Shown here piece by piece: positions 28,301-56,951 of a stretch of DNA of 64,000 nucleotides (its first letter is position 1; each line of letters starts with the position of its first letter). Made by a program: the position numbers and the translations under genes. The stretch is from a virus: the IMG/VR virus record IMGVR_UViG_3300035698_012408; one strand, written 5' to 3'. Under the pieces are notes generated by a model that saw only the letters and a program-made list of their open reading frames with translations, was not told the origin of the DNA and ran no database searches.

Positions 28301-29828
28301 TATTACCGAGCGGGGAGAACGTGCTCTCCATGTCGGGAATCTCATAATCCACCGTGTTGCGTGGCACCATGCGGACCTTGCCACTCTTCAACACCGGCAC
28401 CAACGCCTTGGGGTCGCGTTTCCCGCCACCTGGAAATGCTATCACGGCATCTGCCAAGTCCTGAGGACTTCGATATACGGTCTCACCAGTCTTAGTATCC
28501 ACCACTGGGGTGTAGACACGTCCGTCGTCACCCTTTCGCGCGGCACTTGCCATCCTCGCATCGACGCCTACCTTCCCGCTCTCTGGCGTGCGTAGAAAAT
28601 CCACAAAGCCAAACTGCGTTGGCTGCACTGCCCGAGCTTCGTCTGGTACTGCGTCCAAACTTGGGATACCACCTTCACCCATCCGCGTTACGCGGGAGTG
28701 CTGGTCGAAAATGTCTGCCGGATTGATCTCTTCCAGGGGGATACCCAGGCCGCTGCTCATGAGTGCGGCTTGAATCACGTCGTTGTAGGCTCCAGTCGGC
28801 ATCCGCTCAAGATCACCACGCCCCGAGGCCTTCCACAACAGCCTCTGCGTGACGCTACGCGCCTTGCCGAGCCGTTCCGCGAACAAGTCCTCCGGTCCCA
28901 TCATGGACTGGTAGGCCATCGAATCACGATCGTCAGGCTCTGCTTCGCCGCGAGACACGGCCAACAGCTTGCGAGTGACCGCCAGCAGCGTATCCGGCCC
29001 GACGTTCTCGAACGGTTCGCCGAGTGTCCGCTTCGTCACCTCGGGGTCCAGCGACATGGCCATGAAGGCCTCGGCAACGCGAGCCTTCTGCTCTATGGAG
29101 CTGCCTTCGCCGTCCTTGAACAGCTTGGAGTGTAGCTTGCGGATGACGGCGGGGTCATCCTTCTGGGCGTTCGTGTAAGTGAGATCATTGCCCCAGGCTT
29201 CCCGCAGCTGCGTGTCCGTCACCCCTTGGGCCCGCAAGAGCGGGAGGAGCGGCATCCTTGCCTGCCCCATTTGAATGCGGAATATCCCGCTCTGTGGGTC
29301 AAGGAATATTCGGTGACTGAAGCCCTTCTTCACGTTGACGTGGCTTTCCAGTTCACCATTGTCTTTCATGCGAGTGAACACACCCGGACGCAGTCGCATC
29401 TGGTGTGCCATCGTGTATTCGTTCCCGTTGACAACAAAAGTCCCGCGATCAGTCATCCACGGGATCTTGGCAACCGTGGCCTTCTTCCGCCCCAGTTCTG
29501 CTCCTTCCGCATCAGACAGCACCCACGTGCCACGCAGCGGCCGCGATAGACTTTTTCGCGATAGAATAGCCTTCTTTTGTTCGGCGATGGAGAAGCTCTC
29601 GGGGCCGTGGTACGCCACGTCCGTCAACGCGAGAGTATGCCGGGGGTTGGACACGGGTTCGATAGCTTGGGCGGCCGCCAACGCGTTGGCAAACAGACGT
29701 TTGCGAGTACCCGGTGTGTCACCGAACTTGCGATACGCGGGCGTAGCTTCCTCTTTGTCAGCCACGGGAGGAGCGAGGCTGGCATCAGGACCAAGTACCG
29801 ACTGAGAAATTAAACTGTCGTTAGCCAT
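25383..29828 (-). CDS. rpoB-rpoC fusion: DNA-directed RNA polymerase beta subunit fused to the N-terminal half of beta'
   Basis: Beta motifs: GTFVVNGNEYTMAHQMRLRPGVF, GRYGDKGIISRIVPDADMP...LLNPLGVISRTN, FMKLHHTAESKGQGRG, GMLEVGALLSHGA. Then, in the same frame, beta' motifs: VPVLPPAFRPV, INRAPTLHRYGMMAARP, NADFDGDAMQYHVP. The start at 29828 (MANDSL) overlaps the upstream stop as ATGGCTAA. Confidence 0.9.
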   Translation of the reverse strand: MANDSLISQSVLGPDASLAPPVADKEEATPAYRKFGDTPGTRKRLFANALAAAQAIEPVSNPRHTLALTDVAYHGPESFSIAEQKKAILSRKSLSRPLRGTWVLSDAEGAELGRKKATVAKIPWMTDRGTFVVNGNEYTMAHQMRLRPGVFTRMKDNGELESHVNVKKGFSHRIFLDPQSGIFRIQMGQARMPLLPLLRAQGVTDTQLREAWGNDLTYTNAQKDDPAVIRKLHSKLFKDGEGSSIEQKARVAEAFMAMSLDPEVTKRTLGEPFENVGPDTLLAVTRKLLAVSRGEAEPDDRDSMAYQSMMGPEDLFAERLGKARSVTQRLLWKASGRGDLERMPTGAYNDVIQAALMSSGLGIPLEEINPADIFDQHSRVTRMGEGGIPSLDAVPDEARAVQPTQFGFVDFLRTPESGKVGVDARMASAARKGDDGRVYTPVVDTKTGETVYRSPQDLADAVIAFPGGGKRDPKALVPVLKSGKVRMVPRNTVDYEIPDMESTFSPLGNMIPLKSMVKGQRAVMAARMLTQALPVVGAEAPLVQSGVPGQPGRSFEDEYSKHMGAVRWDSPGRGRVAAVDRDSITVTKEGGGTEEIPLYDNFPYNRKTFIHNTPTVQVGETVEEGQLLARSNFTDMQGVSALGRNARVAYVPFGGLNFEDANVISESFAKKMSSEHMYQHGYEWDGKDQRGKNAFISVFPAAYDKAMLENFDDNGFIRPGTEVKSGDPLILVARERERNRKSMLRGRSPGYLNQTVTWDHHTPGMVTDVVDDDGGSAVVVKSIAPMEVGDKLSGRYGDKGIISRIVPDADMPSDQDGQPYEVLLNPLGVISRTNPAQIVEAALGKIAAARGEAFKVPDFQDEDDLVEYALAELKKAGIADTETIMDSETGRKIPDVFTGNRWFMKLHHTAESKGQGRGLGAYTADQTPAKGGPEGAKRIGMLEVGALLSHGATEFLRSGNMIRGQASPEYWAQYMSGYNPPTPKVPHMYQKYVSHLKAAGINVVRDGSQTHIMALRNDDIDKLAGNRELQNVGTVDWKTMEPVRGGLFDQALTGGHMTPEGGGNRWSFIRLHEPLPNPVMEEPIRRVLGLTKQKFEDVLSGKERLNGATGPKAVGSALDNMNLDGELARAREEIKSGKRTSRDAAVRRLGYLKDAKRLGMHPRDWLLSKVPVLPPAFRPVSTMGKRKLPLVADPNYLYKEVWDANKNLKEAAGLLNDEDIGDERLALYQAFRAVTGLGDPTHPKNQERKVKGILRHVFGTSPKLGMVQRRLLGSAVDMVGRSVIAPDPDLDMDQVGLPEEQAWSIYKPIVTRRLVRKGWSRREAIRAAEERSPVAREALLKEMQDGVVVINRAPTLHRYGMMAARPKLVKGDVLKVSPLVVSGFNADFDGDAMQYHVPATEAEAHEALEKMLPSRNLLSAADFGVHYMPSQEYVGGLYEASARVDEDKPAAVFATTADAIRAYKQGKIGVGRRVEIVEDDK

Positions 29829-30810
29829 ATTGCAGTTCGTCCGCCTCATCGTCTTTGCTGGTCGGGGCATGCGTCACGGTTGTGTAGATCGGTGCTGGAG
29901 CCTTAGCAGCCCGCTGCCGTTCGCGTAACCGCATCGCCCGGTTCATTATCTCCTGCTTACTCCGGCCTGTCGTGTAGTTGTACGTGGCCAGTCCTGTGCC
30001 GCCGGCAAGTAATGCCATCGCAGCCACTAACGCACCCTTACTGCCTTGCACGTTGTCATGCCCAAACGGCGAATACATCGTGTTGAAAATATCATTAAGA
30101 CCATAAGCGAGCTTTTCACGCATGTCGCCGCCTTCCATAGCGGCAACCCGGTCATAGAGGTCATCGATACCTAATGCGTCTCCCGCGTGCTTCGCCTGCA
30201 TGGCCTGTCGATACTGCGACGCCAACGCCTTCTGGTAGTCGGCTTTCGCGTCTGTTACCTCACCTTCCTCAGTGGACTCTCGCTCGCGATCGAGCAGCCA
30301 GTCAGTGAGCTTCCAGCCGCCGTACAGACCGCCACCAGCCATGCCGATACCTGCCGTAGTTCCCCACCAATCACCCAACGGTGATGCCGTCGAGATGTTG
30401 GGCAGCATTTGCGCGAGAGAGTTCCACCACGGGGGTTTCGCGGCAGGTCCGGCGGAGCGTTTCTCACGCTCTTCATCCCTTCCGTGGATCGTGACGGGCG
30501 GCGGGGCAACATGATGAGATACCGGCGACTGGGTGTCATGTACTAGATCATTAACGCCCACCAACGCACGAGCGCCGCCGCCGAATGCTGCACCTAGACC
30601 AGCCAACCGCATGAGCTGCTTGAAGGCTTCACGTTTTGCATTTTGCTGTGCCACATGCGACGTATAAGACGGCCCAGTCAGATCAACGAAAGCCGTTTTC
30701 TCCTGCAAAGCCGCGGGCTCTTGCGAAGCCGTCTTCGCCTTCGTAGCTTGGGCGTACAGCCCCGAAAGTCCCTTCGGTGACCGCTGCTGTTGCTGTCGTT
30801 GCTTGACCAT
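29821..30810 (-). CDS. glycine-zipper membrane protein
   Basis: ATG at 30810 has an AGGAGGGGG SD. The track start is 30894. Gly-rich hydrophobic segments are LAGLGAAFGGGARALVGV, GIGMAGGGLYGGW and LVAAMALLAGGTGLA. The C-terminus is acidic. Confidence 0.55.
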   Translation of the reverse strand: MVKQRQQQQRSPKGLSGLYAQATKAKTASQEPAALQEKTAFVDLTGPSYTSHVAQQNAKREAFKQLMRLAGLGAAFGGGARALVGVNDLVHDTQSPVSHHVAPPPVTIHGRDEEREKRSAGPAAKPPWWNSLAQMLPNISTASPLGDWWGTTAGIGMAGGGLYGGWKLTDWLLDRERESTEEGEVTDAKADYQKALASQYRQAMQAKHAGDALGIDDLYDRVAAMEGGDMREKLAYGLNDIFNTMYSPFGHDNVQGSKGALVAAMALLAGGTGLATYNYTTGRSKQEIMNRAMRLRERQRAAKAPAPIYTTVTHAPTSKDDEADELQYG

Positions 30811-38352: not shown

Positions 38353-39054
38353 TCAAGCCTCAACCTCAGGACAGCCGAATGCGTGCTCGTTACACGCCAC
38401 CAACGCGTCTATATTCGCGTTCGCCCGATACTTCTCCCGACACCAGTCGGTGGCGATGGTGAACTCATAATTGTAGAACAGCGACTCGGTTAGGTTCATC
38501 GGGGTGACCTGATAGTGCGGCCGTCTCGCGACCGGGTCCACCTCGCCGCCCAGATGCGTAGCCATGCTGACCGCGTGGGAGCAGAAGGGCTGACGGATGG
38601 ACTCGCCGTTCTGTGGCAGCCGATCATCTGTCGTGGGCGGGTAAAGCCGCCACAGCAGCGGCACACGCCGCACAAGCATGCGAAATAGGCCTAACCATCC
38701 GTAGTCACAGATGGTTAGGTCACGCATGGCGGCAACTGCGCCGGCAGGGTCGAATTCAGGCCACCTATTGTCCGCGTTCGGACTAAACACGTCAATCCGC
38801 CCAGGCTTCCGCATGTGGTAGGCAAACGGCTTCGTGCGACCACCGACACCCTCACGCAGCTCCAACATATCAACGTGATCATTCTCATCACGTCGAAACA
38901 TTGCCGAGTGTGAGTGGACTCCCTGCGTGCCCAACCGGATCAGCTGCGAGATGTAGGAATCACCCCGCAACTGGCAGATCCAAGCATTCTGGATCATCTC
39001 CTTGGCATATTCAGGGGACACCCACAACGGACTGCTGGTATCGAATTCCCGCAT
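38353..39054 (-). CDS. putative permuted papain-fold (NlpC/P60- or YiiX-like) hydrolase
   Basis: 233 aa. A His-bearing segment GVHSHSAMF precedes a Cys-bearing segment QPFCSHAVSMA, the order seen in permuted NlpC/P60 enzymes. AAGGAAA SD. Weak call. Confidence 0.35.
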   Translation of the reverse strand: MREFDTSSPLWVSPEYAKEMIQNAWICQLRGDSYISQLIRLGTQGVHSHSAMFRRDENDHVDMLELREGVGGRTKPFAYHMRKPGRIDVFSPNADNRWPEFDPAGAVAAMRDLTICDYGWLGLFRMLVRRVPLLWRLYPPTTDDRLPQNGESIRQPFCSHAVSMATHLGGEVDPVARRPHYQVTPMNLTESLFYNYEFTIATDWCREKYRANANIDALVACNEHAFGCPEVEA

Positions 39055-40073: not shown

Positions 40074-41924
40074 CTATCGAAGCCCTAAGACAGATCCTGC
40101 TACGCCTCGCATGAATCCACCCCAGATGCCAAGGTCTTGAAGTTTCGTCTGGCCGGCTGGCGTAAGCCCGCCCAATGCCCCAAGCACTCCACCAGCTATC
40201 CGCGCGGTGGCGAGATCCAGGCCGGCGTTAGCCAGCCCGGAGATAAAGTGCGTGGGTCGTAATATTGGAGCTCCACCATACATCTGCTGGACTCCAGTAA
40301 CAAGCCCTGACGCCGCAGCCGCAATGTACGGCGGCGTGTTGGGCGTCCCCATGCCGTACGGGTTCGCAGTTGAACTCTGCCGCCCGTTATGCACATCATT
40401 CCAAATCGCTCGATTGAACGAGTCTACCGGTACCTGTTTCAACGACACCCCTGCCGACCCACCATAGCCGGAGTAGGCCACCTTGCAAAATCCTTCAGCT
40501 GCTCGCATGAACAGCTCAGACGGCTGAGGCAACGCTGCCTTCGTCGCCTGCCAATCGCTCCCTTTGTAGAAATTATCCCGAAGCGTCAACTCATTCGGCG
40601 ACATCGGGACTTTCGCGTGTGGCGTCATCATCGTACCCATGAAACCCATCGGCTTCCCAGCCTCTCGGGCCATCCCAGCGTTTGCAAACGCTGGCGGGAC
40701 GCTGGACAACGCACCCATCCCTCCACCTAACATGGCCAACGTCCGACGAAGTCTGTTACGCCGAACGTACTTCTCGGGCAGCAGGTGCTCCAGCAGCGTT
40801 CCGCCGAGGTACCCTCCGCCCGCCCCGAGCAAGCCACCGACTATCGAATTGGTCAATGGCGAAGGCCCGCCTGTGGCGGCCCCAGCCCACTCATACGGCT
40901 TGTTCAAGATGCTCAATGCACCAGCCGCCGATTTGATCAACACCCAGTCATCCTGCCCGTGTGGGCCGTACTCCGACTCGGTTCTGACGCTATCCACGCC
41001 ACTGATGGCCTTCAACGCGTTAGCCCACTTCTGATGGACGTTGTCGCTGTCGCCATCCGACAAGATAGCCCAGAGCTGCTTTGTCTCGGGATTCCACCAC
41101 ACGTCACCATAACCGGGGTCAGATGATGCGGGCAGATACCTGATGACCTTCTTGACCGTCTTCTGGACCGTGGCCGCCTCTTTGTAGCGAGTAGCCACGA
41201 GCGCCGGGACAGCCATCCAGGCCTCCAGTTCTCCCTGCTTTTCGATACGTTGGATGGTCTCGTCTTGCACTTTCGACCATGCCTTCCTGGCGTCTACGCC
41301 GCGATCGTCAATGTAAATATCGGCAATCAGCTTATCGCTGGTGCCATCCGGCTGATCCGGGTTCTCGTTCACATAGTCCCACGGAATGTCGTGTTCGTCA
41401 AGATAGGTCTTCGTGAGTTCGTCATCTCCCCGCACCGTGTTAATGATAACACGCCAGCCGCGACCTTTGAACTCATCCAGAGCTTTTTTAGCCCCTGGAC
41501 GTGGCTTAGGGATGTCTTCGGGATCAAACTTATCATACATCTCTGCAATGGTCCCGTCCAGATCTACTGCCACGGTCGGGACCTTTTCACCGGCTTCTGC
41601 CTGCTTTATTGTATCATCCAGGCCAGCACTTCCATCCCATAGGCCGCGGAAGGCCGCCTGCCCAGCAATCCGCTGCGGAAGTCCTCCATCTGTAGATCGT
41701 AGGCCCGCCAGTGCTTTGCTACTGCTCTGCGTTGTTGCTGTGCGACCCACAACGCTCGACGCCTTTCTGCGCCCCGCGTTGCCTGCCGTTCTCGCTTCTG
41801 CCGTTTTTGCTGGCGTCGCGAGCAGCGTTCCGATTTGCCTTTGGACTTTCCCCGTTTGGTGACCCGTTCCTTTGGCTCGTCGCATCTCATGCGTCGTCTG
41901 TCTCCTATGTGTTGTGGCCATCAT
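40074..41924 (-). CDS. HAD-superfamily phosphatase domain fused to a long glycine-zipper C-terminal region
   Basis: HAD motif I VAVDLDGTIAE, motif II VIINTVRG, motif III-like KLIADIYIDDRG. The C-terminus has IVGGLLGAGGGYLGG and IAGGVLGALGG. ATG at 41924 has a GGGAG SD. Confidence 0.6.
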   Translation of the reverse strand: MMATTHRRQTTHEMRRAKGTGHQTGKVQRQIGTLLATPAKTAEARTAGNAGRRKASSVVGRTATTQSSSKALAGLRSTDGGLPQRIAGQAAFRGLWDGSAGLDDTIKQAEAGEKVPTVAVDLDGTIAEMYDKFDPEDIPKPRPGAKKALDEFKGRGWRVIINTVRGDDELTKTYLDEHDIPWDYVNENPDQPDGTSDKLIADIYIDDRGVDARKAWSKVQDETIQRIEKQGELEAWMAVPALVATRYKEAATVQKTVKKVIRYLPASSDPGYGDVWWNPETKQLWAILSDGDSDNVHQKWANALKAISGVDSVRTESEYGPHGQDDWVLIKSAAGALSILNKPYEWAGAATGGPSPLTNSIVGGLLGAGGGYLGGTLLEHLLPEKYVRRNRLRRTLAMLGGGMGALSSVPPAFANAGMAREAGKPMGFMGTMMTPHAKVPMSPNELTLRDNFYKGSDWQATKAALPQPSELFMRAAEGFCKVAYSGYGGSAGVSLKQVPVDSFNRAIWNDVHNGRQSSTANPYGMGTPNTPPYIAAAASGLVTGVQQMYGGAPILRPTHFISGLANAGLDLATARIAGGVLGALGGLTPAGQTKLQDLGIWGGFMRGVAGSVLGLR

Positions 41925-41943
41925 AAATCTCCCGTCCCTGGAG

Positions 41944-42672
41944 TTATTCGTCGAAATAGCACTCAAGGTCGGTGCCGGTAAACTCTTGCTTCAGTTCCGT
42001 GTAATTCTCAATCTGCGATGATAAGGATCTAATCCCTACCTTCACTGTATTGGTTGTAGGCGCCGGGCACAATGCCGGATCTACATCAAGATGCTCGTAG
42101 ATGCGACGCATATACCGCAGCGGGGCTGCACACAGCGACTCGTACGTCAAAACGAAAGAATCCGTATAAGCTAGGCCCGTGGTGGACTGGAGCTGACGAA
42201 TGGCGTCAATATCCTGACGCAACGCAGCAGAGTCCACAACCAGCCGCTGATTCCGAATACGCTCAGCTTTACGCCGCCACCCCGCCTGATGCCGTCGAAT
42301 CTGCCATTTCCTGTGATGATCACCCAATTGATGAGACACGAACCGCCGCAGCAGGTTCCACCGCTGAAGCACGATAACCTTCGTGTCTTGAGGTAACAGC
42401 TTAAACAGATCATTGTACTCACGTGGGTTAGTCCAATGAGGCTGCACCCCTTGCCAGCCGTGAAACATGTGCGCGACCGCCCCGGAGCCCTGTGTCGCCA
42501 ACGTCCGCTGAATGCGGGCACTCGTACTCATTCGCGGTCGACCCGCTTTCGCTCCAGGATTAAACACCTCGCCATCACACGCCAAGTCGGGATGAGAGTT
42601 GATCAAGCCGCGGAGCATGTGCGTGCCGCACCGTGGAAAGGTCAAGACTAAAAATCCCTTTGGTTTTGCCAT
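41944..42672 (-). CDS. sulfotransferase (NodH/Stf0-like), paralogue 1
   Basis: GFLVLTFPRCGTHMLRGLINSHP (PAPS P-loop), LQRWNLLRRFVSHQL, YESLC...RRIYEHLDVDP, ends TDLECYFDE. Confidence 0.75.
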   Translation of the reverse strand: MAKPKGFLVLTFPRCGTHMLRGLINSHPDLACDGEVFNPGAKAGRPRMSTSARIQRTLATQGSGAVAHMFHGWQGVQPHWTNPREYNDLFKLLPQDTKVIVLQRWNLLRRFVSHQLGDHHRKWQIRRHQAGWRRKAERIRNQRLVVDSAALRQDIDAIRQLQSTTGLAYTDSFVLTYESLCAAPLRYMRRIYEHLDVDPALCPAPTTNTVKVGIRSLSSQIENYTELKQEFTGTDLECYFDE

Positions 42673-42688
42673 CTATTCAGTTCTCCGA

Positions 42689-43417
42689 CTATTCATTGAA
42701 ATAACACGCGATGTCAGTGTCTGCAAAACGCCTTTTCAATGACTCGTAATTGATTATCATGTCACGTAACGACCTACCCATATGCAGCGGTAGCGTCTCG
42801 GCTTCAATATTCTCGCAAGCATCCGGGTCCGCCCCGAGGTGCTCGTAAATGCGACGCATGTGAAACTCGGTGTGTAGACACAGCTGCTCATACGACACCC
42901 TGTAAGTATTTAGAAACTGGCAACCCCGCGTGGCTAGTATCACCCGAGCGGTGTGTATATCGCCTCGCAACCGCGCGGGGTCTAGCATCACACGTGCATC
43001 TCTTGCTTGCGTTACTAGAACCTGTGCATCACGCTTACTTCGCGTGACGTTCCATACGCTCTTCCTCGCCAACCGCCCCGACGCATACCGTCGCAATAGA
43101 TTCCACCGCTGAATGCACACGACTTTCGTGTCCAATGGTACTTGCTTGAACAAGTCGGCAAACCTAGTTCGTCGCCCTTTCGGCCAGCCGGTACAAGCAT
43201 GAGCTATCATACCAGTAAGCGGCCCCTGCCAATATTCATTTAGGCGAGCCTGCACGCCCCCTGATTCCTTGAACCTGCTAGGATCAAATACCTCATCATG
43301 ACACGTAATGGCTGGGTGTGCATTGAGCAGCGACCGTAAAAAATGACTGCCACTTCTCGGATACGAGAGTAACAGAAATCCTTGCTTACCTTCAGGGAAC
43401 ACCAAACGATCACTCAT
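42689..43417 (-). CDS. sulfotransferase (NodH/Stf0-like), paralogue 2
   Basis: MSDRLVFPEGKQGFLLLSYPRSGSHFLRSLLNAHP, IQRWNLLRRYASGRL, ends TDIACYFNE. ATG at 43417 overlaps the upstream stop as ATGAGTGA. Confidence 0.75.
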   Translation of the reverse strand: MSDRLVFPEGKQGFLLLSYPRSGSHFLRSLLNAHPAITCHDEVFDPSRFKESGGVQARLNEYWQGPLTGMIAHACTGWPKGRRTRFADLFKQVPLDTKVVCIQRWNLLRRYASGRLARKSVWNVTRSKRDAQVLVTQARDARVMLDPARLRGDIHTARVILATRGCQFLNTYRVSYEQLCLHTEFHMRRIYEHLGADPDACENIEAETLPLHMGRSLRDMIINYESLKRRFADTDIACYFNE

Positions 43418-44159
43418 CAAAATAACACGCAAGGTCAGTGCCCGCAAAATGCTTCTTCACCTTTCCATAATTGGTCACTATCTCCCGGATCGGCCGATCC
43501 GCGTTAAGCACCATCGTCTTGGCCTTCACGTGCTTGCACGCATCCGGGTCAGCCCCGAGGTGCTCGTAAATCCGCCGAATATGTTCTTCAGTATTAGCTC
43601 GCAGCTGCTCGTACGTTACCAGATGAGTATTCACGAATTGCAGCCCGAGCGTGGCCAATATTGCTCTGGTGACATCTACATCCAGTCGCAACTTCACCAC
43701 GTCCACACGGATTGTCTGGGTTCTCGCAGCCTCCGCACGGGCTTCAGCGTTGTCCGAACCAGTCATCACCGTCCACTCGTTACTCGCCTGCGCCAGTAAA
43801 TGCGATACGTGCCGTCGAAACAGGTTCCACCGCTGGATGCACACGATCTTCGTGTCCAGCGGCAGCGTCGGGAATAATCCGGCGAAACCACTCTTTGCCC
43901 GCCACACGCAGTCACGCTCCCCACGCCAACCAATATACGCGTGGGCAATCATGCCCGTGAGCGGCCCTTTCCAATACTGGATCAGTCGCTGCTCTACATG
44001 CCCCGGTTCCGGGTAAAGTTCACGGTTAAATATCTCGCCGTGACACTTGATGTCCGGGTGCTCGTTGAGAAGCGATCGCAGGAAATGACTACCACTTCTC
44101 GGATACGAAAGTAGCAGAAATCCTTGCTTGTCTTTGGGAAATGCTAACCGATTACTCAT
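43410..44159 (-). CDS. sulfotransferase (NodH/Stf0-like), paralogue 3
   Basis: MSNRLAFPKDKQGFLLLSYPRSGSHFLRSLLNEHP, IQRWNLFRRHVSHLL, ends TDLACYFDE. The start overlaps the upstream stop as ATGAGTAA. Confidence 0.75.
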   Translation of the reverse strand: MSNRLAFPKDKQGFLLLSYPRSGSHFLRSLLNEHPDIKCHGEIFNRELYPEPGHVEQRLIQYWKGPLTGMIAHAYIGWRGERDCVWRAKSGFAGLFPTLPLDTKIVCIQRWNLFRRHVSHLLAQASNEWTVMTGSDNAEARAEAARTQTIRVDVVKLRLDVDVTRAILATLGLQFVNTHLVTYEQLRANTEEHIRRIYEHLGADPDACKHVKAKTMVLNADRPIREIVTNYGKVKKHFAGTDLACYFDE

Positions 44160-44901
44160 CGAAATATGGCTCCATGTCTGTACCCATGCACTGGGCTTTC
44201 AGCTCTTCGTAATTTGTTACCTGTTGACTAATCGGCACCCGGGCAAACCGCACTGACGTGGTCGTAGGATTTAACTGCTTACCAGGATCTACGCCAAGGA
44301 ACTTGTAAATATCCCACATGACCCGCTTGGGCGTGCTGCAAAGCTGCTCATAGGTAATGTGTATAGCATTTTGAAACCGTAGCCCGATCGTGGACTGTGC
44401 GGCTCTGGCCATGTCCACGCTGGTACGCAGAGCACCAAGCGGAATATTTACCGTAGTCCTGTCGTACTCATCCCGCCGAAACTTCCCTGGTGCGTTAGTC
44501 CTTGCCTCCCACGCCCTGCACTTCAATGCCATGCGGTCAGACACGTAGCGTCGCAACAGATTCCAGCGATGCAGCACCACGCAAACCTGCTCAGGCCTAA
44601 AGCTAACCAGCGGCTCGGCCTTCAACATATCGGCCACGCCCGTCTCTATCCACGCCGTCTTGTCAAGCGTGTACTGGCACGTCATGTGATGCGTGTAACC
44701 AACGTGCTTCCCAGCACTGTAATGCTCCAAGACGTTCGCCACCGTGTGAGGCTGTTTCACCTTTTTTGTGTAATGCGACAGCACATTGAACAGCTCGCCG
44801 TGACAGTGCAAGTCTGGATGCGAGTTAATGTAATCGCACATCAGATGCGTCCCAGAACGTGGGAGCGACAACAGCACAAATCCTCGTTTAGACCCTGCCA
44901 T
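44152..44901 (-). CDS. sulfotransferase (NodH/Stf0-like), paralogue 4
   Basis: MAGSKRGFVLLSLPRSGTHLMCDYINSHP, LHRWNLLRRYVSDRM, ends TDMEPYFDE. ATG at 44901 forms a TAATG junction. The track start is 44931. Confidence 0.75.
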   Translation of the reverse strand: MAGSKRGFVLLSLPRSGTHLMCDYINSHPDLHCHGELFNVLSHYTKKVKQPHTVANVLEHYSAGKHVGYTHHMTCQYTLDKTAWIETGVADMLKAEPLVSFRPEQVCVVLHRWNLLRRYVSDRMALKCRAWEARTNAPGKFRRDEYDRTTVNIPLGALRTSVDMARAAQSTIGLRFQNAIHITYEQLCSTPKRVMWDIYKFLGVDPGKQLNPTTTSVRFARVPISQQVTNYEELKAQCMGTDMEPYFDE

Positions 44902-45833
44902 TACAAATACTTCTCCAATAACTGCGCCCACTTCTTATGGAACGTCGCCAACCCGAATCGTTCACGTGCGATTTCGACATTTGGCGGTGAGCCTGCCAAT
45001 GCCTTCTTAACAAATCCTGCCAATACGTTCGCGGAAACTACTGCTCCGCGTTTCGGTGGAATCCTTGTCACCATGTCAGCGAACTCTTTGCAGCTGGCAC
45101 GTGCGGAAACCACCACCCGCTTACCCATGCACGCAGCTTCGAGCACACAGTATGGGAATGCTTCATTATGTGACGGCACGCACAACACATCAGTTGCACG
45201 ATAGACGTCGCCCGGCGTATCAGTGTACCCTTGCAACGTCGTCCACCGATTATTCAACCGCCGGGAGCCTGCGACACCCTGACCAGACAGCAGTGCCGGC
45301 TCCTGCAACTTCCGGGCAGCCTTGGCCACCGCAACGGCATTCTTCAGCCCCGAGTTTCTACCAACAAACCCCAACAGGAACTGCTCCCCGTACTTCTCGC
45401 GTAGGTCCTCGCCGACGCGGTCCAACCGCTCACAATCAACACCGTTCGTGATCGTCAACGGCTCTCGGCCGAGAGTCTTCCTCATGTTCCCCGCTACGGG
45501 TGACGAAACAGCGACCAACACGTCGGCGGCCTTCATAGCATCCACCCAGCCAGCGTGCCACTTGTTACGGTGATGCCGCACGCAGATCTGCACGCCGCCA
45601 ACCCGTTTGGTCACGCCGCCACTGGAATCGATGATCACCTTCGCGTCAGTGATAACACCTTGCTGCCACTCCAGCCCTGCCGCTGTAAGCCGCGCAAGTG
45701 CCGCGGGTAGAATCATCGGACCCTGAACACGGACACGCATACCGATAGACTGCAAGTAAGGGGCTAGGCTTAACACCCATGTGAGTCCCCCGCCGCAGTC
45801 CAATTTCTTGAATGCAAATGCTATATCGATCAC
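44901..45833 (-). CDS. GT4-family (GT-B) glycosyltransferase, paralogue 1
   Basis: E-x7-E motif EAFPYCVLEAACMGKRVVVS. Collinear with the next gene. A GTG at 45833 (GTGA overlap, TGGAGAAG SD) aligns with the paralogue's MTDITFAF. Alternative start at 45860. Confidence 0.7.
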   Translation of the reverse strand: MIDIAFAFKKLDCGGGLTWVLSLAPYLQSIGMRVRVQGPMILPAALARLTAAGLEWQQGVITDAKVIIDSSGGVTKRVGGVQICVRHHRNKWHAGWVDAMKAADVLVAVSSPVAGNMRKTLGREPLTITNGVDCERLDRVGEDLREKYGEQFLLGFVGRNSGLKNAVAVAKAARKLQEPALLSGQGVAGSRRLNNRWTTLQGYTDTPGDVYRATDVLCVPSHNEAFPYCVLEAACMGKRVVVSARASCKEFADMVTRIPPKRGAVVSANVLAGFVKKALAGSPPNVEIARERFGLATFHKKWAQLLEKYL

Positions 45834-46768
45834 AGATACTTCTCCAATAACTGCATCCACTTTTTGTAGAATAATGGCAGCCCGAAACGCTCTCGGGCTA
45901 CCGCAACGTCGGGAGGCGGGCCTGCCAATGCCTTCTTCACATGTGCTACTATTGCCTCTGCCGTCGGAGTAGTCCTGGCATGCTGCACTTCGATTCGCGT
46001 AACCATATCAGCGTACTCTTCGCAATGTGCGCGAGCTGATACCACCACACGTTTACCGAGACACAGAGCTTCTACCACCGAGAATGGGAAGGCTTCGTGC
46101 TTGGATGGCACGCACATGACGTCAGCGGCTCGATAGACATCGCCTATCGTGGTCGTGTAACCAATCAACTGCGTGTAGTCGTTCTTCAGTCGACTATCCC
46201 CAGCAATGTTACCGCCCGCAAAGATAGCATGGCGATTGAATAGCTTGGCCGCCTTGGCTATCTGTGCTGCGTTCTTCAACTGAGAGTTACGACCGACGAA
46301 CCCCATCAGAAACTCACGACCGAACTTTTTACGCAGGTCCACACCAACCTTGTCCAGACGGTCAATGTCCACGCCGTTGTTGATGACCACGGGCATTCGC
46401 CCAGTGTATCGACGGGTGTTATGAGCCACCGGGATAGACACGGCGACGATTTCATCCGCTTTCTTCGTAGCCTTCACCCAACCACTCAGCCACGTCCGCC
46501 GGCTATGCCGCACGGCGATGACAGGGCCATCATGCTCCCGTGCTACCTTGCAGCCACTGGAGTCGATCACGATGCGGGTATCCTTGATGACACCGATCTC
46601 GAACGGGATGCCCGCTGCTGTCAACGTGGCTATCGCCGTTGGAAACAGCTTCGGTCCCTGGACACGGACGGTCACGCCCTGTGACTGAAGATAAGAGGCG
46701 AGCGAGATTACCCAGGTAAGCCCACCGCCATTATTTAATCCGCGGAACGCGAACGTGATGTCGGTCAT
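45830..46768 (-). CDS. GT4-family (GT-B) glycosyltransferase, paralogue 2
   Basis: 312 aa. EAFPFSVVEALCLGKRVVVS. Roughly 55-60% identical by eye to paralogue 1. ATGA overlap with the methyltransferase gene. Confidence 0.75.
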   Translation of the reverse strand: MTDITFAFRGLNNGGGLTWVISLASYLQSQGVTVRVQGPKLFPTAIATLTAAGIPFEIGVIKDTRIVIDSSGCKVAREHDGPVIAVRHSRRTWLSGWVKATKKADEIVAVSIPVAHNTRRYTGRMPVVINNGVDIDRLDKVGVDLRKKFGREFLMGFVGRNSQLKNAAQIAKAAKLFNRHAIFAGGNIAGDSRLKNDYTQLIGYTTTIGDVYRAADVMCVPSKHEAFPFSVVEALCLGKRVVVSARAHCEEYADMVTRIEVQHARTTPTAEAIVAHVKKALAGPPPDVAVARERFGLPLFYKKWMQLLEKYL

Positions 46769-47319
46769 GCCTTCTCCAGATAGAAGATCGTTTCCTTCCG
46801 ATACGTATCCTCGTGGTGGATATGCCCTTTGAGCATCTCACGCAGATCCGCTTCGCATAACCGAATGTTTGGAATGATGTGGCCTTCCCAGTTATCGTCC
46901 CTGACGTTCGTGTCCGTCTCGGCCATTCGCAAGAACAACACCAACGTCATCCGTTTCGTGTAGGACTTGAGAGCGTTTTCGAGAATCTTCCGCCAGTTGA
47001 CGTTATGTTCCAACACGTGACGCATGTTGAGGCAGGGCACGCGGGAGGTGTAGACTTCGAGATCCTTCAGGTAATCACAGAATCCCGCAGTGCCATCAAC
47101 GCCGATATATTCCGGCCGATCGGCTGGGGGCACCATGTTGTGCAGCACCTTCTCGAAGTCGCGGCAACCGCAGCCCCAGTCTTCAATCATGCCGTTGCCT
47201 TCCAGCCACGCGACAGATCGCCGATAGGAAGTTTTGCGTCCGTAGTCCCGCCGATGCGCTCCGTCTTTATAACACGGCGACCACTTACCGGCTCCACTTT
47301 CTTCTCTTGACTTCCCCAC
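46765..47319 (-). CDS. class I SAM-dependent methyltransferase
   Basis: 184 aa. Motif I-like MIEDWGCGCRDF, followed by YIGVDG and MRHVLEH. GTG start with an AAGGAGAG SD. Confidence 0.65.
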   Translation of the reverse strand: MGKSREESGAGKWSPCYKDGAHRRDYGRKTSYRRSVAWLEGNGMIEDWGCGCRDFEKVLHNMVPPADRPEYIGVDGTAGFCDYLKDLEVYTSRVPCLNMRHVLEHNVNWRKILENALKSYTKRMTLVLFLRMAETDTNVRDDNWEGHIIPNIRLCEADLREMLKGHIHHEDTYRKETIFYLEKA

Positions 47320-47329
47320 GCTACTCTCC

Positions 47330-48760
47330 TTAAATAATTCGACTTAGTAATTGTGCCACAGGCGATGCCTGCTTTACGAGAAATCCATCCGTGCCAGCCC
47401 CGACACGTGTCCCACCACTCCGCCCATTGTCTCCTGGGACATGAAGCCCATCCTGCCCGGCGGTTCCCGATCTGGAGCTCGCCCCACCACTTGGTCGTGA
47501 TCCTCCCGGAAACTCCGTGGTGCCAGCTCTCTTGGTGGTGGCATTAGGCCCTGCGGCAGGTCCTGCACCTCGTCCATGATCGGCGTGTTCGAGGTCACTC
47601 CGCGAATCCGATCGGCTGCACGTGACAGACCATGTGGCTGTCTTGGTTCGGGCAACGGCTCCAGCATTGCTGGCCGCGTGTGCAACTGCGGCGGTTCGTG
47701 AGACCGTGGCGGCTCCTGCTGGTACAGCGAATGGAACGACTGGAACGCGTGCTCCTGCGGCTCCACCGGCAGATCCCGACTTAGTTGCTCCACCTGCCGC
47801 CCGTCCTCCGTCATTATCCAAGACACTCCGATGAACCTCGGGTCGCTGTACATGTGCTTCCGTTGCGGTCGCGAGACGATCCACAGCGGACCCCCGGGCG
47901 GAGGTGGCGGGGTCCACAGTTGCGGCAGCGACAACACCCGGGACGGCGGCTCCACCAGCTTTGCTAGTGGCGGAGGTAACGGCTTCTCCGGTGGCAGCTT
48001 GATCAGACCCAAATCCCCCGACTTTATAACGCGGATCACGATATGATCGCCAGTCTCGGATCGCATCGAGGACTTGATTTCCTGTCTGAGCCTTCGACGC
48101 ATCCCCCGACTGGCTATCGGCTGCGTAACTGGTTGATTCACTTGCGTTTGTGTCATAGAAACTGCTCCCGCTCTTCCCAAAAACTGGTATGTTTTCGTGA
48201 ATTGGATCGGTACTTAGAAACCGTCCAGGGTTATGAATCAGGCTGCCCTTTTTGACATTGCCAGCCTGAAGGACTCGCTTCTTGCGAATCGCGAAGGTGC
48301 TATGGAACTTGAACTCGCCGTTCTTCGGCAGGCCGCTCAGTCCATAACTTTTACGTAGCTTCTCCAGCTCGGGGCTGTGGATTTCGATCATCCAACACTT
48401 GGAGACGTCATCCCAGCCGTGAGGTGATACTGCCCGCACTGGGCCCAACGTGTAACCGAAGGACTTACCACGTTCTGTTATCTTATCACCTCCACCGATT
48501 TCGTCAATCTCTTCTTTCCGCATTACCGAGACATGAGCCCTATAATTCCCAGAATCTTGCTTGGGTACCTCGGTCCCTGGCTCATTCAACGCTTGGAACG
48601 CACCATGCCCTAAGGCGTTCGGTACGTCCATCAGGAGCCACCCGGAGGCAGATAGGTAGAGTTTGCCCTGGAGCGAGTACGAAAGCTCAGGGGCAGCCGC
48701 AGCCATCTTGCGACCGCCCCGAGCTTCGCAACCTTGGCGGGTTGTATCAGTCATTGACAT
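47330..48760 (-). CDS. 2H-phosphoesterase-like protein (LigT / cyclic-nucleotide phosphodiesterase superfamily); only the N-terminal ~190 aa look genuine
   Basis: Two H-x-[ST]-x motifs about 78 aa apart: RAHVSVMRK and FKFHSTFAIRK. The ORF has no in-frame stop until 47330 and so overlaps the better-supported 47374-48156 frame. The likely start at 48760 lies 5 nt after the upstream stop. Confidence 0.5.
   Translation of the reverse strand: MSMTDTTRQGCEARGGRKMAAAAPELSYSLQGKLYLSASGWLLMDVPNALGHGAFQALNEPGTEVPKQDSGNYRAHVSVMRKEEIDEIGGGDKITERGKSFGYTLGPVRAVSPHGWDDVSKCWMIEIHSPELEKLRKSYGLSGLPKNGEFKFHSTFAIRKKRVLQAGNVKKGSLIHNPGRFLSTDPIHENIPVFGKSGSSFYDTNASESTSYAADSQSGDASKAQTGNQVLDAIRDWRSYRDPRYKVGGFGSDQAATGEAVTSATSKAGGAAVPGVVAAATVDPATSARGSAVDRLATATEAHVQRPEVHRSVLDNDGGRAAGGATKSGSAGGAAGARVPVVPFAVPAGAATVSRTAAVAHAASNAGAVARTKTATWSVTCSRSDSRSDLEHADHGRGAGPAAGPNATTKRAGTTEFPGGSRPSGGASSRSGTAGQDGLHVPGDNGRSGGTRVGAGTDGFLVKQASPVAQLLSRII
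47374..48156 (-). CDS. Pro-rich hypothetical protein (the frame supported by codon-position GC)
   Basis: ATG at 48156 has a GGGAG SD. Hand counts at 47701-47760 and 47941-48000 give GC3 of 85% and 70% in this frame, versus 40% and 50% in the overlapping 511-aa frame. Confidence 0.5.
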   Translation of the reverse strand: MTQTQVNQPVTQPIASRGMRRRLRQEIKSSMRSETGDHIVIRVIKSGDLGLIKLPPEKPLPPPLAKLVEPPSRVLSLPQLWTPPPPPGGPLWIVSRPQRKHMYSDPRFIGVSWIMTEDGRQVEQLSRDLPVEPQEHAFQSFHSLYQQEPPRSHEPPQLHTRPAMLEPLPEPRQPHGLSRAADRIRGVTSNTPIMDEVQDLPQGLMPPPRELAPRSFREDHDQVVGRAPDREPPGRMGFMSQETMGGVVGHVSGLARMDFS

Positions 48761-48765
48761 ACCTG

Positions 48766-49461
48766 TTATTCTTTGGATGGTGTGATTGTCGTGCGATCCA
48801 ACAACTGGGAATTGATTACATCCTGGGCCCCACGACTCTCCGCACCCCTTATGATCTGTGGCCACCGGCGATCCTGTTGCATCTGTATCGCCTCCACTTG
48901 TGTTTGCAGCCTACCGATCGACACCCACATTTCTCGACGATCAAGCTGACACTCATCCGTGATCCTATGGAGCTTCTCGACCTCGAAATGTGCATCCATC
49001 AACTGCACCTCTTCCCGTCCCAGCCGATCGATAACATCAGGATGCGCTGGCAGCGCCTCGTGCTCGCTGAGCATCTGACGCGTCTCGCCCACATCCACGC
49101 TTATCGGGGACATCGTCATGTTCACAAAGGCCACGAAGACCCCGCCAAGGGCCAATGAAGCCACGATGGCTGACATAACCAGCGGCCAGCTCACCTGACC
49201 ATGCTGCGATACTTCGTGTTGCTGTTCGTCGATTCGCCGGTGGATCTCAGCTGACCGTCCGGTCGCGCGTAAATCCGACTCCTGCATCATCCGCCGCGTC
49301 TCTTCAAACCCGGCTGTTACGGTGCGGTTTGTCTGCTCGACCATTTGCAACGTATGCTGCATGTCGCGCTCCAACCCGGTGACCCGACCTTCCAAATGTG
49401 CGTGTGCCTGGCCTGTAGCAACAGCGGCCTTCGCAGTCCCTGCTTCTTGTGTTCCAGCCAT
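48766..49461 (-). CDS. coiled-coil protein with a central transmembrane helix
   Basis: The codon-position signal supports coding only from MAGTQEAG (49461) onwards. The track start is 49653. TM segment WPLVMSAIVASLALGGVFVAFV. Confidence 0.5.
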   Translation of the reverse strand: MAGTQEAGTAKAAVATGQAHAHLEGRVTGLERDMQHTLQMVEQTNRTVTAGFEETRRMMQESDLRATGRSAEIHRRIDEQQHEVSQHGQVSWPLVMSAIVASLALGGVFVAFVNMTMSPISVDVGETRQMLSEHEALPAHPDVIDRLGREEVQLMDAHFEVEKLHRITDECQLDRREMWVSIGRLQTQVEAIQMQQDRRWPQIIRGAESRGAQDVINSQLLDRTTITPSKE

Positions 49462-55188: not shown

Positions 55189-55902
55189 TCAATCAGTTTG
55201 CGGGGCCAACCCGCATTGTTCTATTTGGTCCGGTGCATACGGGCGGGTGGGACACATCAGGCTCGGCTTATCCGAGAAGCTCAGCAGCGGCGTCTTCGCC
55301 GTAAACATGTCGAACGTGTCCCAGTGATTCCGCAGCCACATGTCAACAGGGACGCGAGCGAACGCATACCCGTGATACAGCTTCTGCAACCTCCCCGTCC
55401 TGTTATAGAGATACCCCAAGCTGCCCCAGCCGTAAATACCAGAATACAGCAAACGCGTGGCCTCTTTTTTCCTGGGTCCCGACGTCCTGGGCTCCGGCCC
55501 TTCATTCCAGCCGTACTTGCGATCGAACAGGTTGATGGCGTCCCACGAGTCGAGCTGCTTAGCGTGTGCTATCAGCGTCAACAGCGATTTCCTGAACCCA
55601 ACAAGCGGGACCACGTCATCCTCCAGCACCACCAAGTGAGGCTGCTTGTATCGTGTGATAAAGTAGTACAACGCCTTCGAGTGCCCCTCCAGGCAGCTGC
55701 GACACCGCTGAAGATAATTGCTGTCTGTGATGTCGCCGCCCGGGCGGTCGTACATCCCCGTCATATAATTGCCATTGACCTGTTCCGGCGGCGGCGAACG
55801 GATGAAGTCGAAGGGCACGCCGACAGCCTTCATGTTCTCACGCATCATCTCTTGACGATCCGTGGCTCCCGGCACTGTCACAACTAATACTTTGCAATTC
55901 AT
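55189..55902 (-). CDS. glycosyltransferase family 25-like
   Basis: CLEGHSKALYYFITRYKQPHLVVLEDDVVP matches the GT25 pattern (Cys/His region followed by ilEDDv). ATG at 55902 has a GGAGG SD. Confidence 0.6.
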   Translation of the reverse strand: MNCKVLVVTVPGATDRQEMMRENMKAVGVPFDFIRSPPPEQVNGNYMTGMYDRPGGDITDSNYLQRCRSCLEGHSKALYYFITRYKQPHLVVLEDDVVPLVGFRKSLLTLIAHAKQLDSWDAINLFDRKYGWNEGPEPRTSGPRKKEATRLLYSGIYGWGSLGYLYNRTGRLQKLYHGYAFARVPVDMWLRNHWDTFDMFTAKTPLLSFSDKPSLMCPTRPYAPDQIEQCGLAPQTD

Positions 55903-55943
55903 CAAAATAACCTCCAGCGTCGCAGTGACGCCTGCCCCTTATT

Positions 55944-56951
55944 CTAACTTGCCCACCCCTGCACGTCGAGACGTGCTCGCACCGCAGGGATATATTTATA
56001 ACAAGCGTCTATGATGCACTTTGCAAAGTATTCGACATTGAGCCAATGCTTATCCATCGCCTTCAGGTACTCGTGGGCCGCCATAATGCGATCTCGCTGC
56101 AATAATTCCGGTGCTTCCTTGATGTCATCATAGAACAACGGGTAGCCCGTGCCAAGGTATTCTTCCAGTGCCGGCTTCCGATTTAGCAGGATTGGTGCTT
56201 CCCTCGCGATGCACTCAACCACCGTGTTCGTGGCCGTCACGCCCAGGTAATGGGCAAAGATCACGCTCGACGCTACCAGCTCATTGTACTCGGCATTCGG
56301 TATCCAGCCGTGCTCCTGCACCCGTGGAGGCCGTGGGCAGTCCCGATTGTGCTCCAAGCAGTGATGATGGGCGTTCCGCTGCCACGGGTACTGATGCTCC
56401 AGCAGACGATGCTTCTCGTAGCCGGGCGGCACCCGCATCGTGTAGATCTGCGACGTGTCGCGCAGGTACCAGCCGGTCTGCACTAGCCGCCGCTTCAGCT
56501 TGTCAGGGTCCCACTTCGGGACATCCAACCGCGTCGGATGCCTGATGGGCACGACTGGACACAGCCCCCACTTCTCCAGATGTGGTATCTGCGACTCGCT
56601 CATGGCGATGAGGAAGCTGCACTTCTCTCTCGCCGCGAACCAGCGATCCTGAATGGCCCCGGTGCATTTCGACCAATGCCCGAGCGGGTTGCACCACTGG
56701 TACCGTAGCGGGCGATCGGCCGGCAGATGGCAGACCCCGAACCACGTGTCGCACTGCGAACTATTCTGGAATATGCTCCAGTCAACCGGCAGCCCCAGCG
56801 TACGCTCCACTGCATCATCAAAGATCACCGTGCTGTCGACGTCGAACAGCGGTGCCAGATGCTTCTGAATCCAGGGCCACCCATCACAGTGGTCCCAATC
56901 CTTATGATGCGGATGATCCGGGACCTTCCGAAATATCTTCTCGACCGTCAT
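55944..56951 (-). CDS. possible glycosyltransferase (GT-B-like C-terminal signature); weak
   Basis: 335 aa. VTATNTVVECIAREAPILLNRKPALEEYLGTGYPLFYDD resembles the sugar-donor half of GT-B enzymes. Trp/His/Cys-rich N-terminal half. Confidence 0.3.
   Translation of the reverse strand: MTVEKIFRKVPDHPHHKDWDHCDGWPWIQKHLAPLFDVDSTVIFDDAVERTLGLPVDWSIFQNSSQCDTWFGVCHLPADRPLRYQWCNPLGHWSKCTGAIQDRWFAAREKCSFLIAMSESQIPHLEKWGLCPVVPIRHPTRLDVPKWDPDKLKRRLVQTGWYLRDTSQIYTMRVPPGYEKHRLLEHQYPWQRNAHHHCLEHNRDCPRPPRVQEHGWIPNAEYNELVASSVIFAHYLGVTATNTVVECIAREAPILLNRKPALEEYLGTGYPLFYDDIKEAPELLQRDRIMAAHEYLKAMDKHWLNVEYFAKCIIDACYKYIPAVRARLDVQGWAS

Follow-up and report, generated by a model that had tools for sequence, protein, structure and literature searches.

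The rhizobial proteins NodH, NoeE and LpsS are bacterial carbohydrate O-sulfotransferases dependent on 3′-phosphoadenosine 5′-phosphosulfate (PAPS), and among viruses, the chloroviruses and mimivirus encode glycan machineries. We know of no virus system for virion glycosylation that includes sulfotransferases. Glycosylation of capsid and tail tube is on record for mycobacteriophages (Freeman et al. 2023, as cited in PMC12619734). Single Sulfotransfer_3 genes have been annotated in marine phages, including Synechococcus phage S-SRM01 and OM43-phage genomes (PMC10580990, PMC12285232), and the role of viral sulfotransferases was called "unclear" in 2023 (PMC10580990). The best-matching solved enzyme for the proteins considered here is Stam10 (9VKI, deposited as "LPS sulfotransferase NodH"), which is 84% identical to Sam10, a PAPS-dependent fucose 2-O-sulfotransferase of saccharomicin biosynthesis (PMC13291958). 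Here we analyse a 64,000-nucleotide stretch of viral DNA (IMG/VR record IMGVR_UViG_3300035698_012408; referred to as the window), in which four sulfotransferase genes (ST; STa to STd) form the distal part of a seven-gene minus-strand operon, in the order methyltransferase (MT), two glycosyltransferases (GT; GT1 and GT2) and STa to STd. Judged from the sequences, it is probable that the four are active sulfotransferases and add sulfate to a glycan that the neighbouring GTs assemble.

Compared with the described systems, the phage STs have in common with Stam10 the single-domain fold with a 5′-phosphosulfate-binding (5′-PSB) and a 3′-phosphate-binding (3′-PB) motif, Stam10 using PAPS to sulfate a sugar hydroxyl; Stam10 differs in that it comes from an actinomycete, is encoded in single copy, acts on a natural-product substrate and shows low identity to the phage STs. 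The rhizobial enzymes belong to the same broad class, but they are not orthologues of the phage proteins, for which "NodH" is a COG-level label only. Virion-glycosylation systems of viruses resemble the operon in employing GTs, sometimes methyltransferases, in lineage-specific gene sets; they decorate virion proteins from host nucleotide sugars in the cytoplasm, a target that for the phage operon would be a candidate. The annotated phage sulfotransferases are single genes without tblastn similarity to the window STs among 50,697 phage records, in which the window at the nucleotide level (blastn) and STb and GT1 by tblastn likewise found no match. In BFVD, the sulfotransferase fold was matched by proteins of Synechococcus phage S-SCSM1, Xanthomonas phage FoX4, uncultured Caudovirales and giant viruses. 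Sulfotransferases encoded by viruses had been seen before, and what lacks a description is solely the array together with its operon. A limited literature search returned no phage sulfotransferase array, no conserved MT-GT-ST cassette and no phage-made sulfated glycan. The initial annotation of this DNA from its letters and open reading frames (ORFs; the sequence-only reading) knew of no such array as a described phage feature, which stands for the array in the literature found; single phage sulfotransferase genes were already annotated.

The sulfotransferase array and its enzyme class

The window holds exactly four ST copies as detected by tblastn (coordinates in Table 1), transcribed in the order STa, STb, STc, STd. 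The four consecutive same-strand ORFs of 242, 242, 249 and 249 amino acids from which the sequence-only reading had started were borne out to their exact coordinates, on the minus strand; a GTG-start extension of STa would reach 44931 and a TTG-start extension of STc 43447. Their paralogy, claimed by the same reading, is substantiated by pairwise identities of about 36-56%, with STb and STc as the closest pair (56%) and the remaining pairs at 36-42%; STa is the most divergent copy, at about 35-39% to the other three. The end-to-end alignment of the four contains 47 invariant columns, and the copies find one another by tblastn at E-values of 1e-31 to 1e-50, a similarity far beyond chance. Three of the motifs reported at the outset occur in all four proteins, namely the 5′-PSB loop GF[LV][LV]L[ST]xPR[SC]G[ST]H, the segment [QH]RWNL[LF]RR[FYH][VA]S and the C-terminal TD[LIM][AE][CP]YF[DN]E. 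A fourth, YE[QS]LC...RRIYEHL, is not strictly universal: STb reads YEQLR where YEQLC was given, and STa has WDIYKFLGVDP in place of the RRIYEHL-type segment.

STa to STd belong to the PAPS sulfotransferase superfamily (Sulfotransfer_3) on every computable criterion. All four exceed the Pfam gathering score of 27 bits for Sulfotransfer_3 (PF13469), with 41.4 bits for STa, 40.0 for STb, 37.7 for STc and 34.5 for STd, and the STa match spans profile positions 4-213 of 216; the profile check proposed together with the original annotation thus came out positive for each protein. Sulfotransfer_1 (PF00685) is above its gathering score for STb only (27.9 bits vs 22). The Stf0 profile PF09037 scores below its gathering score of 22 for STb (17.2 bits) and STa (18.5 bits), and the search with it gave no match for STc and STd. 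Neither the NCBIfam Stf0 model NF047724 (16.4 bits vs a cut-off of 400) nor the NoeE equivalog NF052394 (15.7-28.8 bits vs a cut-off of 500) is reached. Because these curated thresholds are missed, the STs are not members of Stf0 or NoeE, and the Stf0-type assignment of the sequence-only reading had to be abandoned. No PHROG family covers the window STs. Profile comparisons place them, within the superfamily, as NodH/Stam10-like and outside the Stf0, NoeE and TPST groups.

Structure prediction with AlphaFold2, carried out for STb on a 33-sequence alignment, gave a model with a predicted local distance difference test (pLDDT) of 89.9 and a predicted template-modelling (pTM) score of 0.88. It shows strand 14-18, a loop and helix 24-31 as the 5′-PSB, followed later by strand 104-109 and helix 113-126 as the 3′-PB; the PR[SC]G[ST]H loop lies between the first strand and helix, R110 directly after the second strand and S119 within its helix. 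Both PR[SC]G[ST]H and RWNLLRR are thus found at the strand and helix sites expected of PAPS-binding elements. The top 50 Foldseek matches of the model in the PDB are without exception of sulfotransferase fold and PAP(S)-binding, at probability near 1.0, and include the bacterial sulfotransferase 3RNL, StaL, Teg12, Stf0 (1TEX), heparan 3-OSTs, TPSTs and cytosolic SULTs. Stf0, the trehalose 2-sulfotransferase of PF09037, therefore shares its fold with the STb model without the phage STs being members of its family. The STs show no sign of a signal peptide or membrane anchor, their first strand beginning at residue 14. Together, the PF13469 matches of all four, the STb model with its Foldseek result, the full-length Stam10 profile match and the conserved residues uphold the sulfotransferase identity first read from the motifs.

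The profile searches against the PDB bear on what kind of acceptor is used. With the profile of the four window sequences, the best matches are human TPST1 and TPST2 (E about 2e-8, local only), next to 9VKI at E = 1.4e-7; the stretch PRSG(T/S)...HP(D)...C..E aligns well with the TPSTs, which are also among the Foldseek matches. From this it might be argued that the STs are TPST/RaxST-like enzymes acting on tyrosines of phage or host proteins, with the neighbouring GTs being unrelated. The TPST match, however, is confined to two stretches, the 5′-PSB loop and a short one near the C-terminus (profile positions 10-36 and about 161-197), with template-modelling (TM) scores of 0.34-0.49, and TPST/RaxST membership was rejected. 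The deeper family profile ranks the carbohydrate enzyme ahead by ten orders of magnitude, with 9VKI as the clear best match (E = 1.5e-19) over nearly full length (profile positions 6-202 of 236). Moreover, the coupling to GT genes, the co-occurrence of ST and GT in at least five phage lineages and the existence of GT-ST fusion proteins point to a sugar. We consider tyrosine sulfation very improbable. A carbohydrate acceptor is suggested by context, namely the linkage to family GT4 genes, the pairing of ST and GT in related phages, the homologues in polysaccharide clusters and the fusions with family GT2.

Residue conservation suggests how the glycan-directed reaction might proceed. In Stam10, the 5′-phosphate is bound by R13, S16 and S17, and the acceptor O2 is contacted by E34; alanine replacement of R13, S16 or S17 abolished or markedly reduced the activity, replacement of R108, S117 or E34 abolished it, and S17, H37, Q87 and H155 are listed as further essential residues (PMC13291958). 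On alignment, Stam10 R13, S16, E34, R108 and S117 correspond to R21, S/T24, E42, R110 and S119 of the phage enzymes, none of which varies among the four STs of the window and six further STs from related phages; G23 is likewise invariant and aligned with Stam10 G15. In the four-sequence profile, E42 is also aligned with the glutamate of the TPST "CGEE" motif, which we take to be the catalytic base E99 of TPST2. Each ST would accordingly be a soluble, cytoplasmic, PAPS-dependent O-sulfotransferase, in which the PR[SC]G[ST]H loop after strand 1 would hold the 5′-phosphosulfate, R110 and S119 of RWNLLRRxxS would hold the 3′-phosphate, and Glu42 of C-x-x-E-x-F would contact or deprotonate the acceptor hydroxyl.

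A coupled operon and its probable history in related phages

The STs are the distal part of the operon introduced above, whose MT-GT-ST organisation had gone unnoticed in the sequence-only reading. Stop and start codons overlap at MT/GT1 (ATGA), GT1/GT2 (GTGA) and GT2/STa (TAATG, the STa ATG overlapping the GT2 stop codon). Within the array, STa/STb (junction ATGAGTAA) and STb/STc (junction ATGAGTGA) each overlap by 8 nucleotides on the coding strand, and STc/STd are separated by a 16-nucleotide spacer containing GGAG. The claim of three coupling overlaps among the STs therefore holds for two of them; the TAATG assigned to the third belongs to GT2/STa. With its junctions overlapping, save for the STc/STd spacer, MT-GT-GT-ST-ST-ST-ST forms one translationally coupled unit of 5.4 kb. 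A promoter and terminator scan gave the same counts as in shuffled sequence.

Table 1. Positions of the operon genes and of other features of the window
Feature	Position	Strand	Product length	Basis or remark
STa, first sulfotransferase in the array	44152-44901	minus	249 aa from ATG	
STb, second sulfotransferase	43410-44159	minus	249 aa	
STc, third sulfotransferase	42689-43417	minus	242 aa from ATG	
STd, fourth sulfotransferase	41944-42672	minus	242 aa	
MT, class I SAM-dependent methyltransferase	46765-47319	minus	184 aa	first cassette gene; predicted structure
GT1, GT4-family glycosyltransferase	45830-46768	minus	312 aa	Pfam
GT2, GT4-family (GT-B) glycosyltransferase	44901-45833	minus	310 aa from GTG at 45833	Pfam
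2H-SAK phosphoesterase ("Swiss Army Knife" polyvalent-type) protein, upstream flank	47330-48865	minus		PF22547, E = 3.1e-8
HAD-phosphatase/glycine-rich protein, downstream flank	40074-41966	minus	615-630 aa	NCBIfam, PHROG
Fused RNA polymerase beta/beta'-like protein	25383-29870	minus	1495 aa	
RNA polymerase piece	22241-24142	minus	633 aa	
ORF downstream of the HAD gene	38353-39054	minus	233 aa	PHROG 1128, enoyl-CoA hydratase-like, E 5.9e-10
ORF with weak GT25 similarity	55189-55905	minus		E 0.0064, below threshold
ORF with weak Glyco_trans_1_2 similarity	55944-56951	minus		E 4.8e-4, below threshold

GT1 and GT2 are gene names here and in what follows; the glycosyltransferase families are written as family GT2 and family GT4. 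Both genes encode family GT4 enzymes by Pfam: GT1 matches Glycos_transf_1 (E = 1.4e-12) and, likewise above the gathering scores, Glyco_trans_1_4 and Glyco_transf_4, and GT2 matches Glyco_trans_1_4 (E = 3.7e-10) and Glycos_transf_1 (E = 2.3e-9), both above the gathering scores, as well as the glycosyltransferase family PHROG 2170. The E-x7-E motif can be read in both translations (EAFPFSVVE in GT1, EAFPYCVLE in GT2), which are 59% identical and have near-identical C-termini (..KKW[MA]QLLEKYL). GT1 has five close relatives among 5.8 billion proteins, and the two whose contigs were inspected (P0163, P0164) are both located within related phages. For MT, searches of Pfam, NCBIfam and PDB sequences gave no match, and no similarity was found to the methyltransferase of the phage L009 (Table 2). 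The AlphaFold2 model of MT (pLDDT 90.9) has a PDB top 50 in Foldseek of class I S-adenosylmethionine (SAM) methyltransferase fold, nearly all of them methyltransferases, and it is by structure prediction alone that MT is assigned as a class I SAM-dependent methyltransferase. Its family has at least 283 homologues, mostly unannotated metagenomic proteins, some of which carry PF13489 or bear the name SAM-dependent methyltransferase. Upstream of the cassette, two ORFs have weak similarity to glycosyltransferases (Table 1, last two rows), from which it appears that glycan enzymes of the phage may not be confined to the cassette.

Related phages were found via the neighbouring HAD, MT and GT proteins and are listed in Table 2. 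A metagenome-wide scan with the four-ST alignment gave 150 pattern matches and no true relatives; among 1.84 billion representative proteins, the ST family has 10 members at E ≤ 1e-30 and 1,406 at E ≤ 1e-10. In the four closest relatives the cassette occupies one locus, between the 2H-SAK gene and the HAD-phosphatase/glycine-rich gene. The more distantly related jumbo phages L009, L021 and L024 have homologues of both flanks nearby, but their STs are upstream of the SAK gene. The family GT2 genes of L021 and L024 are above the Pfam gathering score, and the family GT2-like ORF of L009 is below threshold. In view of these arrangements, the pairing of ST with GT recurs across lineages even with a differing GT family.

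Table 2. Sulfotransferase-containing loci in related phages
Phage	Source	Gene content
L106	Logan ERR10503146	MT-GT-ST
L001 (= L019)	JGI 3300037628; Logan SRR12613172	MT-GT-ST-ST
L017	230-kb contig; ENA ERZ23486252 scaffold_25, NCBI SDBU01000034.1	MT-GT-GT-ST
Window	~215-kb contig	MT-GT-GT-STx4
L107	1.2-kb fragment	at least two STs
L009 (= L020)	IMG/VR, 184 kb	different MT, two PhyH dioxygenases, three tandem STs, weak family GT2-like ORF
L021	IMG/VR, 202 kb	two family GT2 genes and one ST
L024	IMG/VR, 208 kb	one ST and one family GT2 gene

The L009 locus (5248-12421 of IMGVR_UViG_3300018080_000105) encodes a Methyltransf_11/12 protein, two PhyH-type Fe/2-oxoglutarate dioxygenases, a 255-residue protein and the three tandem STs. 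The placement of STs beside two such dioxygenases and a methyltransferase gives a tailoring-like set, and Stam10, the closest solved relative, acts on a glycosylated natural product; the target might then be a diffusible glycoside, a natural-product-like or signalling molecule, or even the sugars on hypermodified phage DNA, as GTs of DNA-hypermodifying phages are known (cited in PMC12619734). Against such targets, the window has no detected polyketide synthase, non-ribosomal peptide synthetase, terpene scaffold enzyme, hydroxymethylase or other DNA-modification gene, and a 5-hydroxymethyldeoxyuridine DNA kinase appeared only as a non-significant Foldseek match (E 0.06, probability 0.18). We know of no sulfated DNA modification. 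A small-molecule or DNA-linked target is regarded as improbable.

Returning to a glycan built by the cassette's own GTs, the divergence between the paralogues is informative. It is distributed unevenly: identity between copies is 53-62% in the cofactor and catalytic segments and 20-30% in four surface segments, at STb residues 46-67, 74-103, 127-153 and 202-229, which bear most of the indel columns. A conserved core combined with diverged surface loops is the pattern expected if the PAPS chemistry is kept and the acceptor sites diverge. In the neighbour-joining tree, one clade unites the eight STs of the close relatives (bootstrap 67%), STb groups with STc (72%) and the L017 ST with ST1 of L001 (100%); STd is the copy with the nearest counterparts in related phages (identity of 52% to L001 ST2, 43-44% to the STs of L017 and L106). 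On these comparisons STb/STc represents the most recent duplication, and it is most likely that the array grew by duplication within the phage lineage from a minimal MT-GT-ST cassette. Two other schemes were considered and rejected. A twofold duplication of a GT-ST-ST module is not compatible with GT2 being nearer than GT1 to the single GT of L001, nor with the grouping of the STs into a, b/c and d types and not into two repeated pairs. A fixed number of two STs per GT, suggested by the window (4:2) and L001 (2:1), is refuted by L017 (1:2) and L106 (1:1).

The fact that relatives manage with one or two STs could also be taken to mean that one copy in the window is functional and that the others are recent amplification products in the course of being lost. 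Yet none of the four ORFs is disrupted, no cofactor or catalytic residue has been lost and the translational coupling is retained; the same phage recurs at 99.98% identity in four independent datasets, the divergence is concentrated in the surface loops instead of being even, and the copies are only 36-56% identical, implying that the duplications are old. Decay of redundant duplicates is thus considered most unlikely as an explanation of the array.

Genome setting, and proposed product and acceptor

The pathway proposed for the cytoplasm of the infected cell has GT1 and GT2 building a short glycan from host nucleotide sugars, which MT would then cap by O-methylation; STa to STd would move sulfate from host PAPS to distinct hydroxyls, at different positions or on different sugars, and the product would be a polyanionic, methylated oligosaccharide. 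A methylated, multiply sulfated sugar chain is the most likely product of the cassette. The sequence-only reading had proposed that the virus sulfates a glycan at the expense of host PAPS, and that proposal has become likely, short of proof, through the family GT4 and MT neighbours, the recurrent pairing of ST with GT and the cellular clusters and fusions described below.

Several observations weigh against this proposal of four active glycan sulfotransferases. Donor, acceptor and product are all inferred, and the supply of PAPS by the host is an assumption; scans of the 64-kb window found no APS kinase, ATP sulfurylase or other gene of PAPS synthesis, and no glycosylated acceptor protein or sugar-nucleotide gene either. 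The TM-scores of the STb model against its PDB matches are moderate, at 0.4-0.53. Stam10 S17 is replaced by histidine throughout the ST family, H37 by asparagine and H155 by aspartate or serine; because these residues are not kept, the acceptor specificity of Stam10 cannot be transferred to the phage enzymes. The three are acceptor-side or second-shell sites, so that the chemistry may be kept but not the specificity. The bootstrap of the clade that unites the STs of the close relatives is only moderate, and the tree gives STa no firm position. Finally, the ST:GT ratio varies among relatives (1:1, 2:1, 1:2, 4:2), and hence a fixed "n sulfates per sugar" does not fit.

The cassette is carried by an uncultured jumbo phage from a poorly sampled lineage, with a genome of about 215 kb. 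Nearly all long ORFs of the window are on the minus strand, its GC content is 57% with a negative GC skew in every 2-kb bin, and no tRNA genes were found in it. It encodes a tail-sheath-like protein (PHROG) and a trypsin-like protease; a Pfam search of 27 pooled window ORFs additionally noted a cold-shock domain protein and a papain-family (Peptidase_C1) protease. At about 31% identity, the 1495-residue RNA polymerase protein matches its counterparts in Salmonella phage Arash and Vibrio phages D181, D148 and D69, and the weaker matches include ten Rhizobium phage records; it assigns the phage to a poorly described lineage that encodes its own RNA polymerase. The phage setting read from the DNA at the outset is confirmed by the tail-sheath PHROG, the RNA polymerase genes and the relatives in IMG/VR.

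The cassette sits between the 2H-SAK and HAD/glycine-rich genes, with no recognised capsid gene adjoining. Orthologues of the 2H-SAK gene, directly upstream of the cassette in L001 (3902-6202), L017 (7765-9999) and L106 (7178-9457), mark a conserved insertion point; they encode 744-766 residues with InPase and SET domains, in place of which the window copy has a long low-complexity C-terminal half rich in Ala, Gly, Ser and Thr. The window gene is called differently in different datasets (474, or 198 + 260 residues), and its product is taken as context only for the cassette chemistry. The downstream protein combines a HAD-IIIA phosphatase domain (about residues 126-244; NCBIfam BT0820-family HAD phosphatase, E = 4.2e-9; PHROG 1238, E = 2.1e-22; PDB sequence match 2obb) with a glycine-rich, hydrophobic C-terminal half that resembles a glycine zipper. 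Conservation of the protein across all relatives is 53-66%, the HAD domain alone occurring in 70 IMG/VR loci, and a search of the protein against a genome collection matched only the HAD domain, in unrelated metagenome-assembled genomes. The protein might be ejected and membrane-active; that its phosphatase clears PAP, the by-product of the sulfotransferases, is pure speculation. The 233-residue protein further downstream is 67-70% conserved in relatives and matched no Pfam family.

Cellular relatives of the STs lie in polysaccharide clusters or are fused to family GT2 domains. In L016 (GCA_947259115.1), an ST homologue belongs to a Wzy-type polysaccharide cluster with a fused ATP-sulfurylase/APS-kinase, genes of families GT2 and GT4, a polysaccharide deacetylase, two other STs and a Sulfotransfer_4 domain fused to an Inositol_P domain (4393-5736; CysQ-like, PAP phosphatase-type), from which it is seen that cellular clusters for sulfated polysaccharides can supply their own cofactor and by-product removal. 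Another cellular homologue adjoins a family GT4 gene and a WcbI-domain gene, and JGI names some of the cellular homologues "LPS sulfotransferase NodH". Fusions of family GT2 with STs rank among the best non-phage matches: P0167 (MBT5149504.1, Candidatus Peribacter; annotated as glycosyltransferase) consists of a family GT2 domain and three ST stretches, P0171 has family GT2 and two ST stretches, and P0192 has three STs and family GT2; P0169 is listed with these as a cellular fusion of the same kind, with two or three ST domains each. The fusions are a separate, independent line of evidence for joint action of several such STs with a glycosyltransferase. The cellular systems share with the phage cassette the ST family and the combination of several STs with GTs. 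They differ in having PAPS synthase, Wzy, flippase-type functions or tetratricopeptide repeat scaffolds, where the phage cassette has MT, GT and ST only, and the fusions use family GT2 where the cassette uses family GT4.

The occurrence of homologues in Wzy-type clusters or beside family GT4 and WcbI capsule genes lends itself to a reading in which the cassette remodels the host envelope, acting at the cytoplasmic membrane face on undecaprenyl-linked units of O-antigen, capsule or exopolysaccharide; the resulting sulfated, more anionic surface would block superinfection or re-adsorption to debris, in the manner of seroconversion enzymes. The best PDB sequence match of GT1, a weak one, is PglA, a family GT4 enzyme acting on an undecaprenyl-diphosphate-linked sugar, and the variation of GT and ST copy number between relatives would fit a surface arms race. 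Seroconversion is, however, typical of temperate phages, and the phage in question has about 215 kb and its own RNA polymerase, with no integrase in Pfam scans of the window. The cassette lacks a flippase, Wzy and an initiating phosphoglycosyl transferase, and it is located amid genes of a kind that usually encodes virion or ejected proteins (2H-SAK, proteases). Envelope remodelling is considered rather unlikely, but it is the main alternative to a target in the virion.

The acceptor that we favour, if tentatively, is a virion or ejected protein of the phage itself, a preference based on the mycobacteriophage analogy and on the location of the cassette among genes typical of packaged proteins. 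A virion whose capsid, tail or ejected proteins bear a methylated and polysulfated oligosaccharide of the phage's own making is a possible, somewhat doubtful, extension of this view.

Significance

Sulfotransferase genes recur in listings of marine and saline viromes, and the locus analysed here offers the first coherent context found for phage sulfotransferases, namely a conserved and coupled MT-GT-ST cassette in which the numbers of STs and GTs differ from one sister phage to another, with the peak of four STs in the window. The array provides four compact, soluble, naturally diverged candidate carbohydrate sulfotransferases which could be of use in making defined sulfated sugars. If the virion were indeed the target, the polyanionic coat would be the first case of a bacteriophage making a sulfated glycoconjugate, and the ST expansion from one to two to four in the related phages would vary the coat in response to selection by host receptors, by defences or by a sulfated exopolymer matrix that the virion must cross. 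Should the cassette place a sulfated glycan on the virion or the infected cell surface, sulfation would join glycosylation, methylation and acetylation in the known glycan chemistry encoded by phages, with consequences for adsorption, for evasion of defence and immunity and for the viral use of host PAPS and sulfur.

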